A stretch of 41,346 bases of DNA. Source: a virus. Lineage: Duplodnaviria; Heunggongvirae; Uroviricota; Caudoviricetes. The stretch is from positions 1 through 41,346 of the IMG/VR virus record IMGVR_UViG_2690316296_000007; one strand, 5' to 3'. The position numbers and the translations under genes are program-made. The notes beneath the pieces were generated by a model that was not told where the DNA came from, did not search any database, and worked only from the letters and a program-made list of their open reading frames with translations. Positions 3,204 to 37,303 of this stretch are shown here, one piece after another (position 1 is the first letter of the stretch; the number at the start of each line of letters is the position of its first letter).

Positions 3204-4502
3204 TCACCATGAAGGATAATTAGGTTTTTTTCCTCTTAAAAGAGATACTTTGTCAATTATCTCAACAGAAGCAGTTCTATAATCCTCCTGCTGAAGTAGG
3301 TGAACTGCATAATCTCTCAATTCTTGCAAAGTGGAAAAGCCGTTACTTTCGATGAGTATTATAATTATCTTAATATACTTAAAGATTTGTTCAGAGGATT
3401 CGTTCGCGTTGACGTTAAGTTCGTAAAAATCTTTACCATCATGAACAAGCTTGTTTCTTACGTCAGTATATAACTCGTCATAAACTTCTAGGTTTTTCTT
3501 AAATTTGATTAGTGAGTTATTACATGTAAGTGCTGCAATGTAGGTCCTTTGCTTCCATCCTTTCCAATTTGGGTCAATATTAGCAAGACCATCAAGTGCA
3601 AAGACTAGGTTTAGAAATTGTGATTCCGCGCCAATTGAATAAAAAGATTGCCTACATGCCCTAACTACGGAGCTAACTAATTTTGAAAGTTCATTTTCAA
3701 CGACTCCATCGTAGATAGAAGATAAATATTGCAACCCAGGGTAATACAAGCTGTCAACCTGAGGGCCTAGCCAATTATTACTCACAGCAAGGGGTCTTGA
3801 TATTCCACTTATCTTAATTGGTTTAAGATGAGTCCTCTCACGAGGAATGATTTCTACATCATAAAATCCGTCAGAGCGTTGACCTGCAGGATTAGGGGTA
3901 TATTCCATACGTGTAAATGAGCTGTGAGAAAATCTGACTAAATCAAGCGCATATTCAGCTATAGATAAACACATGTTTATAACATGGTTGTTATGATCAA
4001 TGCTTGAATTAAGTTTTAATAAATCAATATATGGTAGGTCACAGTTAAACTGTATATACGAACCATCTTGCTCTGATAATCGCTTATGTGACTCTTCATC
4101 AAATTGTCTTCCGCAATAAAAAATATACTTTCCGATCTCGATGGTTTCCTGAATGAAAATCTTCTCAATCGGCACAATAACTATGCACTCCATATTTTTG
4201 TTTTTACCCTCTAATTCAGCTAATTCTAGGTTAGAGCTTCTTGATTTAGCTAACTCTATTTCTACCCACTCAAAGCATATTGAGAAGTCTTCTAGAATTT
4301 CGATACTGCTTTTTTGATAACTATCCTTGGTATATTTAAATGTAATGCCATCTCCTTCAGGATAGGCACTGGCCCAATATCCCATATCTCTTAACTTTTT
4401 TAGAGATGTTGAGATATCGTCGACTTTATTAATAAAATCCTCTTTTCGCCATAAAACATTGCCAGTGTAGTTTTCGTACGGTGGTATTAAACGAGCTTTC
4501 AT
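3204..4502 (-). CDS. Hypothetical 432-aa cargo protein with Rx4H (HEPN-like) motif; candidate abortive-infection effector
   Basis: Long AT-rich ORF with AAGGAAG 6 nt upstream of the ATG; C-terminal region contains RNKLVHDG (R-x4-H); flanked by the repeated hairpin motif. Confidence 0.5.
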   Translation of the reverse strand: MKARLIPPYENYTGNVLWRKEDFINKVDDISTSLKKLRDMGYWASAYPEGDGITFKYTKDSYQKSSIEILEDFSICFEWVEIELAKSRSSNLELAELEGKNKNMECIVIVPIEKIFIQETIEIGKYIFYCGRQFDEESHKRLSEQDGSYIQFNCDLPYIDLLKLNSSIDHNNHVINMCLSIAEYALDLVRFSHSSFTRMEYTPNPAGQRSDGFYDVEIIPRERTHLKPIKISGISRPLAVSNNWLGPQVDSLYYPGLQYLSSIYDGVVENELSKLVSSVVRACRQSFYSIGAESQFLNLVFALDGLANIDPNWKGWKQRTYIAALTCNNSLIKFKKNLEVYDELYTDVRNKLVHDGKDFYELNVNANESSEQIFKYIKIIIILIESNGFSTLQELRDYAVHLLQQEDYRTASVEIIDKVSLLRGKKPNYPSW

Positions 4503-4645
4503 ATAACTTCCTTATTATCCAAGAGGATGTGACTGAAATTTTTATCAGACTTATCTACAATAATATAAATTGACATGAAAAATCTACTCAACAATTAACC
4601 GTTATGATTTGCTTGCGACGACTAAAACATGCCGATGGGTCGCAT

Positions 4646-4668
4646 CCGCTCCTGGCACATAGCAGTCC
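4646..4668. repeat. Hairpin motif copy 3 (ccgctcctggcacatagcagtcc), degenerate
   Basis: About 19 of 24 positions identical to copy 2; lies between the pin 3' end and the 3204..4502 gene. Confidence 0.4.
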
Positions 4669-4834
4669 GAGAGACAGTGGCGTAAAGTCATGGAGGATCG
4701 GTGGGAGGAGGCGCTAATCCTTTCATACAAAAAATATGTAAAATCAATAACGGCTGTAAATCATTCAATACTCGCACTATCGGAAGTTCACCAGCCAACC
4801 GCAGCACGTTCTTGCATACGACGAGCCTGCGGTT

Positions 4835-5389
4835 TCATTTATCTCCGACCGGAAACATCTTATACAGTGTCGATACACCAACATCATAGATGATCGCTAC
4901 CTTCTGGCGAGGAATTCCTGCTGCAATTAATCGTCCGGCCTGCTCCCATTGTTCTGGTGTAAGTTTGGGGCGACGTCCACCAATTCGTCCCTGTGCGCGA
5001 GCAGCTTCCAGTCCAGCTTTTGTTCGTTCAACAATCAGTTCACGCTCCATTTCAGCCAGGGCACCCATCACATGAAAGAAAAAGCGCCCCATTGGGGTAC
5101 TGGTATCAATTGAATCCGTCAGACTACGAAAGTTGATGCCTCGTTCGCGCAACTCCTCCACCAGCACGACAAGATGCCGCATACTGCGCCCCAGTCGGTC
5201 CAGTTTCCAGACCACCAGCGTGTCACCTGCCGATAATGTCCTGAGCAGCTTTTTCAGTCCTGGTCTGTCGGACTTTGTACCGCTTATCTTGTCTTCAAAA
5301 ATCAGCTCACATCCTGCACAGTTCAGCGCATTACGTTGTAGATCGGTATTCTGGTCATTTGTTGATACACGTACATAGCCAATAAGCAT
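4835..5389 (-). CDS. pin: Serine-recombinase DNA invertase (Pin/Gin/Hin/Cin family)
   Basis: N-terminus MLIGYVRVSTNDQNTDLQ with the catalytic Ser in the YVRVS context, resolvase-like core, C-terminal HTH; start moved to the ATG at 5389 (track ORF extends to 5425). Confidence 0.9.
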   Translation of the reverse strand: MLIGYVRVSTNDQNTDLQRNALNCAGCELIFEDKISGTKSDRPGLKKLLRTLSAGDTLVVWKLDRLGRSMRHLVVLVEELRERGINFRSLTDSIDTSTPMGRFFFHVMGALAEMERELIVERTKAGLEAARAQGRIGGRRPKLTPEQWEQAGRLIAAGIPRQKVAIIYDVGVSTLYKMFPVGDK

Positions 5390-35237: not shown

Positions 35238-35912
35238 ATGAAAACAATCCATGACATCCGGCGGTCTAACGCCAGAAAACTGAGAGATGGTGTTGGCGGG
35301 AATTCTTCCTTTGCCACTATGATTGATCGCGAGCCAACCCAGACCAGCAGGTTTATGGGAGATGGTGCTACTAAAAATATCGGTGACAGCATGGCACGAC
35401 ACATCGAAAAATGTTTCGACCTGCCTGTCGGATGGCTCGATCAAGAACACCAGACAACGAACATCACAAAAAAACCTGATGTTTCAATCACTAATAAACA
35501 AATCACATTAGTCCCTGTCATATCATGGGTACAGGCCGGAGCATGGAAAGAAGTTGGATATTCTGAGGTTGATTTGAGCACAGCAGAAACGTATCCCTGC
35601 CCTGTACCCTGTGGGGAAATGACTTATATCTTGCGGGTGATAGGTGATTCAATGATTGATGAGTACCGCCCGGGAGACATGATTTTTGTCGATCCTGAAG
35701 TACCTGCCTGCCACGGTGACGACGTTATTGCATTGATGCACGATACAGGCGAAACCACCTTCAAAAGGTTGATAGAAGATGGGACACAGCGTTATCTCAA
35801 AGCGTTAAACCCAAACTGGCCTGAGCCTTACATTAAGATCAACGGTAATTGCTCTATAATTGGTACAGTGATTTTCTCAGGAAAACCAAGAAGATACAAA
35901 ATCAAAGCCTAA
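35238..35912 (+). CDS. CI-like prophage repressor (HTH plus S24 LexA-like peptidase domain)
   Basis: 224 aa; C-terminal GDSM ... YRPGD motifs; e14 CohE-like size. Confidence 0.85.
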   Translation: MKTIHDIRRSNARKLRDGVGGNSSFATMIDREPTQTSRFMGDGATKNIGDSMARHIEKCFDLPVGWLDQEHQTTNITKKPDVSITNKQITLVPVISWVQAGAWKEVGYSEVDLSTAETYPCPVPCGEMTYILRVIGDSMIDEYRPGDMIFVDPEVPACHGDDVIALMHDTGETTFKRLIEDGTQRYLKALNPNWPEPYIKINGNCSIIGTVIFSGKPRRYKIKA

Positions 35913-35924
35913 TCAATGTTTATG

Positions 35925-35947
35925 AACCTGCTTCGGCAGGTTTTTTT
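35925..35947 (+). terminator. Rho-independent terminator after cI
   Basis: AACCTGC-TTCG-GCAGGTT followed by T7. Confidence 0.6.
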
Positions 35948-35951
35948 ATAC

Positions 35952-35990
35952 TTGACAATGTACCTTTGAGATACATAATGTACCCAAGCG
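35952..35990 (+). promoter_or_regulatory. pL-like promoter with OL-like operator half-sites
   Basis: TTGACA - 16 bp - CATAAT; ATGTACC occurs twice overlapping the promoter, the same half-site as in OR. Confidence 0.5.
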
Positions 35991-36146
35991 AAACAACGAA
36001 CAGGCAGGACGCCCACGAAGTAGCCGCCTGGGGCATATGAAGTCCAGGATGATTCGTTAGCAACAAAAAAGCGCCCTACAGGACGCTTAGCTCTTTAACA
36101 ATCTGGTCCCCATCAACAAGTAACTGATAACTTGAGGAGATGTGAA

Positions 36147-36353
36147 ATGCACAAAACAGAACCCAAAATCGTCGCGCCTGGCTACACAGATGAGGAAATT
36201 TATGAGTGGATGACAAAGAAGCTGGCAGCTATAAACCAGCTTCGTGAAGTGCTGTCTTATCGACAGGAAACAATAGACTCCTTAAAAAAACTGGATCAGG
36301 AAATCACGGTTTTATCACAGGATGTTACTTTAGATATTGTGCAGACAAATTAG
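36147..36353 (+). CDS. Small hypothetical protein, first gene after pL
   Basis: 68 aa from the ATG at 36147 with GAGGAG Shine-Dalgarno; helical, no Arg-rich N-like motif. Confidence 0.45.
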   Translation: MHKTEPKIVAPGYTDEEIYEWMTKKLAAINQLREVLSYRQETIDSLKKLDQEITVLSQDVTLDIVQTN

Positions 36354-36759
36354 GATCCCATTCATTTTCGTCAAAATCATCAAAGTGATGAATTTGTGAT
36401 CTCCAGTCTCGATAATCTAAAAATTTCTGGGCGGTTACGCTTATTTTATCAAGTGTGAGTTCATCCTGAATTGAAAGAAGAAGTTCATCAAATTTCATCT
36501 CATTAATCTGTTTTGGCATCCAGTGATGCTTCATCAGAATAAGGTGAACCAGAGCCTTTTTCCCATTCAACTGATTATAGGGAGTGCCGAATTTCTTCCG
36601 GTGCTCATGTAAGACAAGGTCCAAAAGAGTAAGTAATGTTGCCCTTGATTCAACTTTGCTTATTTCGACTGATGACACTACCCCACTGATTTCAATGCCC
36701 CGATACTTTCCAACATTTTCACAGTGGGATTTGTACAGCGTATAGATATTACCGGACAT
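36325..36759 (-). CDS. Hypothetical 144-aa protein antisense to the pL operon (candidate exclusion/accessory gene)
   Basis: AT-rich ORF convergent with 36147..36353 (29-nt overlap); direct repeats GTTGTTGGGGA(T/A)AAC just upstream at 36775..36823. Confidence 0.5.
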   Translation of the reverse strand: MSGNIYTLYKSHCENVGKYRGIEISGVVSSVEISKVESRATLLTLLDLVLHEHRKKFGTPYNQLNGKKALVHLILMKHHWMPKQINEMKFDELLLSIQDELTLDKISVTAQKFLDYRDWRSQIHHFDDFDENEWDPNLSAQYLK

Positions 36760-36779
36760 TTCTTTTCCTTTTGCGTTGT

Positions 36780-37210
36780 TGGGGATAACCAGATTAACCG
36801 AATCCTTGTTGTTGGGGAATAACTAGGTCCACCTCGCCTGATGTGGCTAAAAGCAGGCACATAACAGCTAAGTATTTTCAACCAGAGAGAATCCTTAGCG
36901 TTGTGGTGAATGCGGCTCAGCGCACGCGGGTTAAGGTTGAGGCTGACAGTCGACCTTCTGTGGATACCCACCCGCCTGGTGTGCAACCTTCGCTAGGCAC
37001 CGGGAGGCACCCGGCACCACAACTTTATGCTGTGTGTAGTCCTGGCGGTACCAGTTTGTACCCTTGCTTCCGGCTGGTACCGTCCTTTTTACAAAACAGA
37101 GAAGAGCATCACCGGACGACGGGCTCATAACCCAATCCATCCGGGCGGCTGCCACCGCAGGTGTTCTTCTCTGTTTTGTGGAGAAACTAACCGCCCCTAC
37201 GGGGGCATTT
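36780..37210. other. GC-rich structured non-coding island (candidate ncRNA or regulatory RNA element)
   Basis: No convincing ORF; 15-bp perfect stem ACAAAACAGAGAAGA/TCTTCTCTGTTTTGT (37091..37179), nested CGGTACCAG/CTGGTACCG repeat (37047..37082), GCCCC-TAC-GGGGC hairpin then ATTTAT (37193..37209). Confidence 0.3.
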
Positions 37211-37303
37211 ATGGAAATGTAATTGACTCAATAATCGCCGGACGGTGAGGGCTTCCTTTTACCCGAATTCAGCGCGGTGCAGCGCATATACGTGGAGAAC
37301 AAA

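Follow-up and report, generated by a model that had tools for sequence, protein, structure and literature searches.

What does a lambdoid prophage carry behind its left early promoter, and do the neighbouring parts found there belong together? The question is posed by a viral sequence of 41,346 nt (Caudoviricetes; positions 1 to 41,346 of IMG/VR record IMGVR_UViG_2690316296_000007), the whole of which we call the window. A first-pass annotation, made from the letters alone, singled out positions 36147-37210 as one immunity-region module, consisting of an antisense gene for 144 amino acids (aa) and a structured, GC-rich, non-coding island. The sequence features behind that proposal are real, but they belong to two independent features lying side by side. 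Our analysis revealed that the island is a real structured non-coding RNA with the pseudoknotted core of the STnc100/PasD superfamily of small RNAs (sRNAs), and that it is a promoter-less, very widespread variant of this known superfamily. What we establish here about the RNA is its structure, the family to which it belongs, its architecture and its distribution, as well as its independence from the 144-aa gene, an accessory gene (moron) that lies antisense inside the operon of the left early promoter (pL) and is unrelated to the RNA island.

Results

The island contains an STnc100-class core

The island stands out by its GC content (0.53-0.58 over 36800-37200) and by its fold: the segment 36860-37215 is more stable than shuffled sequences with z = -6.25 on the plus strand and z = -2.66 on the minus strand. 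The covariance-model search that the first-pass annotation had proposed returned the Rfam family STnc100 (RF02076) on the plus strand at 36870-37092, over the full length of the model (44.0 bits; E = 8e-8 in 1.7 kb and 1.9e-6 in the whole window). Sister elements of the early-operon type score 34-48 bits against this model, and one of them (L137) passes the gathering score at 47.8. The core shares with STnc100 the helices P1, H1, H3 and H4 and the invariant CACCGGGAGGCACCCGGCACCA. The invariant 20-mer CCGGGAGGCACCCGGCACCA occurs exactly in the window (Table 1), with 0 occurrences expected by chance. A search with it yielded 209 related elements, which come from viral and bacterial contigs and form 93 clusters at 85% identity. 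The core common to STnc100, EcOnc27 and PasD comprises GUGGUGAAU, H1 with a U(A/C)AGC loop and an A bulge, H3, the H4 sequence CACCGGGAGGCACCCGG and the P1 3' strand CACCA(C/U); as in the island, a variable linker and a Rho-independent terminator follow it on the 3' side.

MAFFT failed to align the variable middle of the element (H2, H3 and the pseudoknot), and the helices were therefore tested without an alignment, by comparing the complementarity of the two arms within and between sequences under permutation in 44 representatives of less than 80% identity. The observed value was reached in 0 of 5000 permutations for H3, which has 42 different stem sequences, in 0 of 5000 for H1, in 12 of 5000 for the outer part of P1, and in 0 of 2000 for the pseudoknot. 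RNAalifold independently recovered P1, H1 (with its A bulge) and H4. The pseudoknot joins the segment after H1 to the loop of H3, and in phiES15 its strands are AAGGCUGG and UCAGCCUU. The P0 stem, which precedes the core, differs in sequence in ST64B and phiES15 and keeps its pairing. An sRNA had been among the roles suggested for the island, and the STnc100 match, the covarying helices and the sRNA-like terminator bear this out as regards its type.

Could the island instead be a decayed protein-coding gene, as the automatic annotation of the region might suggest? PGAP places a "frameshifted hypothetical protein" at about 36903-37222, SfII has an intact open reading frame (ORF) of 113 codons (SfII_35) over the same DNA, and a Salmonella phage record labels the region YfdP. 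The first-pass annotation had seen no credible ORF here, and none is conserved: in 14 variants, no frame stays open through the invariant 20-mer, and the protein annotations over the island are therefore artefacts. In ST64B, phiES15 and others, the frame of SfII does not stay open beyond 36-84 nt, the variation in the helices is compensatory, and the ORF translations have no Pfam or NCBIfam match. A degraded gene in relatives, named at the outset as the finding that would overturn a non-coding island, is thus rejected; we give this explanation next to no credence. The coding sequences called on such islands include, besides the PGAP pseudogene and SfII_35, gp36/gp37 of mEp460 and "YfdP" in phage As1 (36903-37222 in the window, L005 3083-3421 and L004 3060-3613).

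Table 1. Features between cI and the first early-left gene, in window coordinates (nt, nucleotides; MFE, minimum free energy; UTR, untranslated region)
Feature	Position	Strand	Remarks
cI	35238-35912	+	
cI terminator	35924-35943		after cI
pL promoter	35952-35979	+	TTGACA-16-CATAAT; 11/12 consensus positions
67-nt structured element	35992-36058	+	immediately downstream of pL
Hairpin and rrn-type boxA	36069-36101		boxA GCTCTTTAACAA (CGCTCTTTAACAA in Escherichia albertii), preceded by the hairpin
Intrinsic terminator of the 144-aa gene's transcript	36069-36088	-	AAGCGTCCTGTAGGGCGCTT, then TTTTGTTGCT
Inverted copy of the repeat motif	36100-36119		pairs with 36776-36795 (inverted repeat I2: 20 nt, 75% complementary, ungapped)
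68-aa ORF	36147-36353	+	first gene after pL; phrog_1744, E = 6e-35
144-aa gene, ECs1072 family	36325-36759	-	opposes pL transcription
Two direct repeats	36775-36789 and 36808-36822 (stretch 36775-36823)	-	GTTGTTGGGGA(T/A)AAC; spaced 33 nt; within the 5' UTR of the 144-aa gene
Junction box	36829-36866		38 nt; common to Cronobacter, Klebsiella and Hafnia phages
GC-rich island	36867-37206	+	core, DicF-like 3' module and long hairpin
P0 hairpin	36867-36899	+	from the MFE fold; abuts the core; early-operon subtype only
STnc100-class core	36900-37023	+	
P1	36900-36908 with 37015-37023	+	
H1	36912-36927	+	
Pseudoknot	36933-36939 with 36984-36990	+	AAGGUUG with CAACCUU
H3	36974-36998	+	
H4	37000-37014	+	
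Invariant 20-mer	37000-37019	+	
DicF-like 3' module	37024-37090	+	single-stranded UUUAUGCUGUGUGUAGUCC (candidate seed and RNase E site), then T1
Intrinsic terminator T1	stem 37044-37084, U5 37086-37090	+	-20.5 kcal/mol, z = -3.9
Long hairpin LH	37088-37182	+	arms 37091-37115 and 37155-37179; -61.1 kcal/mol, z = -7.3
Small GC hairpin	37193-37206	+	ahead of the next gene's leader; no U-run

The RNA represents a promoter-less subtype of the early-left operon

The window is a lambdoid prophage of the SfIV/SfV/ST64B type, which adjoins tRNA-Thr(CGT) and proA and is integrated at thrW. Its early-left operon runs from pL through the island and on to yfdR, yfdS, yfdT, xis and int. Because the cI terminator and pL both lie upstream of the 144-aa gene and the island, everything described here is located downstream of pL. 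The position of lambda rexAB, to which the module had been likened, does not apply: rexAB lies between cI and pL and is co-transcribed with cI, whereas the gene and the island do neither.

No promoter of the island's own was found by scan, by a survey of relatives or by eye. Under strict scoring, a sigma-70 promoter directly upstream was present in 0 of 31 unique early-operon variants versus 60 of 150 unique canonical copies, and a terminator was present in 25 of the 31 variants and in 122 of the 150 canonical copies (within 200 nt). The early-operon subtype is always in sense orientation; pL (or an antisense accessory gene) precedes it and the first early-left gene comes after it, an arrangement that SfII, ST64B, phiES15, E. 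albertii and, with a more diverged copy, mEp460 all show. In contrast, a canonical STnc100 stands alone as a gene under its own promoter and occupies the late-region accessory-gene site, downstream of PR'/stx and near nanS-p and the holin gene. The subtype of the window also differs in its extra 5' hairpin P0 and in the sequence of H1 (GCGGCUCAGCGCACGC). Canonical members are Hfq-bound sRNAs detectable by Northern blotting, namely EcOnc27 (PMC4104026, PMC12711010), STnc100_4 of the set STnc100_1-11 (PMC5331693) and PasD (10.64898/2026.05.13.724894). Hfq-bound expression has been shown for these canonical copies, and by analogy with them the RNA of the window may behave in the same way.

Two further arrangements were seen in the wider family. 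Some prophages (L031, L071, L211, L166 and L025) carry tandem pairs of STnc100-type genes, each with its own promoter and terminator. On the chromosomes of Raoultella, Klebsiella and Kosakonia (L167 3064-3310; L134, L159), bona fide STnc100 elements of 78-96 bits stand about 30 nt upstream of KdgM-family porin genes; these cases and the association with nanS-p in Stx phages hint that the STnc100 family may have originated as a leader.

The 3' half of the island resembles DicF

The linker UUUAUGCUGUGUGUAGUCC is conserved among early-operon variants, and T1, which follows it, aligns to the terminator of the STnc100 model. The Rfam model of DicF (RF00039) gave a weak match across linker and T1 (37031-37085; 15.7 bits, E = 3.2), and Qin, a prophage of E. 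coli K-12, was therefore examined. When 37023-37090 was aligned with the 53-nt DicF including its terminator, 48 of 58 positions were identical and the score was 61.5. Shuffled sequences scored 35.7 +/- 4.3 (a distance of about 6 standard deviations (sd), with 0 of 2000 reaching the observed score), and 132 other, canonical STnc100 terminator modules scored 28.3 +/- 8.6 (about 3.9 sd, the window module lying above all 132). All top scorers in this alignment were early-operon variants.

DicF is known in three forms: one of 53 nt, with a 5' end made by RNase E and a 3' end made by the terminator; one of 190 nt, with a 5' end made by RNase III; and one of 72 nt, with a 3' end made by RNase III on read-through transcripts. 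An internal promoter was not found in the published work (10.1101/2023.04.14.536235; PMC5069750). The stretch of the window that begins with the 5' end of P1 (36900) and runs through T1 to 37090 measures 191 nt, which matches the 190-nt form. Furthermore, the dicF-dicB spacer of K-12 (174 nt; L222 2936-3112) turns out to be an early-operon core like that of STnc100 (34.4 bits against RF02076, E = 2e-5). H4 shows a compensatory CCUGG/CCAGG change there, the pseudoknot is conserved and a helix of 28 bp closes the core. By the annotated coordinates, the 3' end of the 72-nt DicF falls within this closing helix.

DicF is the closest functional relative of the island RNA. Both are promoter-less and embedded in a repressor-controlled operon of the early-left type, and both have an intrinsic terminator at the 3' end and flanking structured domains closed by helices. 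The order of the parts differs, being core, DicF-like module and long hairpin in the window, and another structured domain, DicF and then the core with a long P1 in Qin; the downstream genes are yfdR to int in the former and dicB in the latter. Since linker and loop differ from the DicF seeds, targeting of ftsZ, xylR and pykA is not to be assumed. In other variants that lack a terminator, no DicF reaching the Rfam gathering score was found beside the core. Our search of the literature found no paper linking STnc100 and DicF.

The long near-perfect hairpin of the first-pass annotation is present, with a stem of 20 perfect bp, or 23 bp with its extension, rather than 15 bp. It has a branched tip and begins at the U-run of T1. 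ST64B keeps it with a compensatory change from G-C to A-U, and in another variant (L094) a terminator, a long hairpin, GGAGAUAC and a small hairpin follow one another in the same layout, in unrelated sequence. We regard LH as a candidate RNase III site. The RNase III sites of the lambda pL transcript (the N leader and sib) likewise consist of a long near-perfect hairpin of at least 20 bp between leader and coding region; there is no sequence relationship with LH.

The 144-aa gene is independent of the RNA

In 5,426 complete E. coli genomes searched at high nucleotide identity, the 144-aa gene was found in 421, P0 with the core in 1,874, and T1 with LH in 2,777. The island sits beside unrelated antisense genes or none in SfII, phiES15 and ST64B. 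Conversely, a 56%-identical homologue of the 144-aa protein (P0011, in L220) is encoded antisense in another early-left operon that has no island at all. The idea that the RNA is the partner of the antisense gene is contradicted by these results, above all by the unequal genome counts, which indicate that it is not.

We nevertheless weighed the possibility that gene and RNA form one functional pair, whether as RNA partner, as a type III toxin-antitoxin-like unit or as a defence system. The two are adjacent, the repeats lie between them, and the stretch that runs from the gene's upstream region to the end of the island shows about 99% conservation in E. albertii. Yet gene and RNA lie on opposite strands and diverge, the only repeats are two of 15 nt that form part of the gene's own 5' UTR, and neither PADLOC nor Pfam gives a match. 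A type III system of the ToxIN kind has tandem antitoxin RNA repeats, a terminator and a same-strand toxin gene for a ToxN/AbiE-like protein, an arrangement that the window does not have. With the distribution added, a functional pair is extremely improbable.

An accessory cassette with its own terminator and a duplicated 5'-UTR motif

The 144-aa gene was correctly described as lying in an AT-rich stretch (GC 0.34-0.42) against the pL transcript. Its product matches NCBIfam NF033230, "ECs1072 family phage-associated protein", over its full length (157.8 bits, E = 1.7e-46; curated cut-off 70 bits) and is also a member of phrog_5286. A profile search yielded 76 representative homologues, all of them stand-alone proteins of about 148 aa. 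Searches of Pfam, NCBIfam, PADLOC and PHROGs for a function gave solely families of unknown function, with no Pfam or PADLOC match, and the literature on ECs1072 yielded one entry in a microarray table and nothing more.

The gene belongs to an accessory cassette that consists of the 68-aa ORF, the 144-aa gene with its own one-way terminator, and a duplicated 5'-UTR motif. The 68-aa ORF was not mentioned in the first pass, although the start coordinate given there, 36147, takes it in; it converges on the 144-aa gene with an overlap of 29 nt, and its counterpart in E. albertii is a conserved 80-aa ORF. The terminator is one-way, as the plus strand of its hairpin has no U-run. In E. albertii, the order is the same, with cI, a small ORF, the antisense ECs1072 gene and the island, then yfdP. 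Beside the ECs1072 homologue of L220, the opposite strand of a non-coding stretch (4457-4950) resembles the structured leader that precedes dicF in K-12, which suggests a Qin-like operon with an inserted accessory gene.

The two direct repeats ahead of the gene, also noted in the first pass, are confirmed, and none of 100 shuffles gave three or more matches. Their sequence on the mRNA strand is GUUAU(U)CCCCAACAAC, and each is followed by an AAGGA motif, the second of which is the Shine-Dalgarno sequence (SD). E. albertii has retained both units, and so has the 56%-identical homologue, in which ACAAGGA stands at the end of each unit and one unit overlaps the SD. In phiES15 and L136, unrelated antisense genes are preceded by the motif in single copy. 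On motif similarity alone, the paired units resemble paired CsrA sites. The motif also has an inverted copy upstream of the 68-aa ORF, and since this copy pairs with the first repeat, the arms flank the cassette of the 68-aa and 144-aa genes.

The junction box between the repeats and the island is, in relatives, the minus-strand promoter of the antisense gene: phiES15 and L136 have TTAGCC/TTTGCC-16-TGGTATACT/TGGTATGCT with an extended -10. The box of the window has ACCTAG at the -10 position, where the relatives have a good extended -10. A Hafnia phage (H110) carries sieB beside the same conserved box. Lambda sieB occupies a place like that of the 144-aa gene, antisense to pL within the pL operon; the proteins themselves have no sequence or fold similarity, and the 144-aa protein is soluble-looking and all-alpha.

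The leader of the pL transcript, and the case against the island as an antitermination element

The structured element of 67 nt that lies immediately downstream of pL shows 98.5% identity in SfII, where it lies about 190 nt downstream of pL, and 87% identity in ST64B, with compensatory changes in two stems and unrelated flanks. As a candidate leader RNA of the pL transcript, it occupies the position of a put element, without similarity to HK022 putL. A boxA of the rrn type follows, and the hairpin before it doubles, on the minus strand, as the terminator of the 144-aa gene.

An antitermination-type RNA had been another suggestion for the island. In that case, the core would be a put-like processive antitermination RNA that carries RNA polymerase past T1 and later terminators. 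It is true that these phages have no recognisable N protein, that T1 must somehow be passed and that the element lies upstream of terminators. For comparison, HK022 putL was reconstructed from the genome and PMC9378689. The put RNA of HK022 is a two-stem RNA of about 70 nt directly after pL or pR, which the island is not: it begins some 900 nt downstream of pL, away from the transcription start, and has no sequence similarity to putL or putR (BLAST against the HK022 immunity region gave no match). Moreover, the island is followed by its own terminator, and canonical, promoter-bearing copies stop at theirs and accumulate as discrete sRNAs (PMC4104026); antitermination by these copies into the downstream lysis genes would be lethal. 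The suggestion thus fails for the island, for which we consider a put-like role very unlikely, and the conserved 67-nt element is the better candidate.

The junction with the downstream genes

The first-pass annotation took the small hairpin at 37193 for terminator-like. It has no U-run, it is replaced by other hairpins in relatives, and it is the intergenic hairpin of the K-12 type between yfdQ and yfdR; the real terminator, T1, was overlooked. The segment 37193-37320 matches the yfdQ-yfdR spacer of K-12 (CPS-53) at 94.5% and is also present in a Stx2c phage (L002 4455-4582). The small hairpin marks a recombination junction: by the join made here, the phage of the window lost yfdP and yfdQ.

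SfII and SfIV likewise have no yfdP and yfdQ, and the junction hairpin resembles the hairpin that follows the long hairpin in phages that keep these genes. A mini-ORF of 10-14 codons, (G/A)UG GAG A(A/U)..., starts from the 3' end of LH in the window (37177-37222) and in ST64B, L172, L155 and L094; it has no SD of its own, and in several variants its stop codon and the next gene's SD overlap. In related phages (L002 413-601, L003 409-597, L004 823-1011 and L221 3464-3652), a C4 antisense RNA and IsrK lie adjacent to each other near the replication/antirepressor region, and neither is found in the window.

Discussion

How might a promoter-less RNA of this kind work? We think it probable that the island is a composite non-coding RNA carried in the pL transcript and processed in the manner of DicF, beside an unrelated accessory cassette. 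The island would be silent while cI represses pL, and the 144-aa gene would be expressed in the lysogen and opposed by pL transcription once the prophage is induced. When the repressor is lifted or leaky, pL transcripts may end at T1 or read through. RNase III would then cut the long helices that flank the sRNA module (P0/P1 and LH), and RNase E the AU-rich linker, giving a long form of about 190 nt (core and module) together with a short one of about 65 nt. Either may act in trans as an Hfq-type sRNA through the linker or the loop of T1, with a seed unlike that of DicF. Cleavage in LH would also separate the leader from the downstream message for yfdR to xis and int. [quoted passage not shown]

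Several points weigh against this model. The case for RNase III and RNase E cleavage is one of analogy with Qin alone, and pL transcription must somehow pass T1 to reach xis and int. The STnc100 score of 44.0 bits is 3 bits below the gathering score of 47, and the DicF covariance model gives 15.7 bits against a gathering score of 48, compared with 76.7 for DicF of K-12. A crude duplex test with the ftsZ leader gave values no better than shuffles, both for the module of the window and for DicF itself, and matches to the linker within the prophage, sought as possible targets, were at chance level. Finally, six early-operon variants have no terminator; in these, the core lies 20-60 nt before the ribosome-binding site and is closed by a helix of at least 20 bp, an arrangement that fits a cis-acting leader better than an sRNA gene.

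Such a leader is the main rival of the DicF-like model. The core would sense a protein, a ligand or the state of ribosome or RNA polymerase and would set either passage through T1 or translation of the first gene, gating yfdR to xis and int, and any sRNA would be a by-product. The constant sense position of the core at the head of the early-left genes, without a promoter of its own, fits this view, as do the six terminator-less variants, the same arrangement upstream of dicB in K-12 and the STnc100 elements ahead of chromosomal KdgM-family porin genes. The core is also far more conserved than usual sRNA bodies, at about 99% between E. coli and E. albertii, compared with 72% for the neighbouring protein. 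On the other hand, we found no covarying anti-terminator: for the core against the terminator arms, 84-126 of 3000 permutations were equal to or above the observed value, with a tiny effect, and complementarity between linker and terminator was below random, while the positive control gave 0 of 3000. The terminator sequences are unrelated between variants, yet the 3' part of the core is invariant, and canonical copies accumulate as discrete Hfq-bound sRNAs (PMC4104026, PMC5331693). We therefore regard a mainly cis-acting leader as unlikely, while taking it seriously.

A broader and more speculative thought, which we also hold to be rather unlikely, is that the core may be a reusable RNA domain and not just the body of an sRNA. 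It might serve as a cassette for processing or stability, or as a sensor of a protein or ligand; the stacked P1 and H4 resemble the acceptor/T minihelix of tRNA. Prophages would have attached it to interchangeable 3' sRNA modules (DicF, PasD, EcOnc27 and the module of the window) and to the leaders of early-left, lysis and KdgM/NanS genes. If this were true, DicF would be one processed product of the scaffold, and the core would control the release of the attached sRNA and of the downstream genes.

The DicF-like model and the distribution of its parts have consequences for E. coli prophages in general. In about one third to half of complete E. coli genomes, the RNA modules stand at the start of a prophage's early-left operon, where annotation pipelines label them hypothetical or frameshifted proteins. 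The site in the pL operon beside the island is an accessory hotspot, occupied by ECs1072, sieB or other antisense genes in different phages, and is a sensible place to seek exclusion or defence genes expressed in the lysogen. The joining of an STnc100-class core to a DicF-like module connects two sRNA families that have been studied separately, and the closing helix of the core accounts for the long-known processing of DicF by RNase III, which yields the 3' end of the 72-nt form. If the model holds, there should be a class of prophage sRNAs that are specific to induction, have diverged seeds and may reprogram the host in lytic growth.

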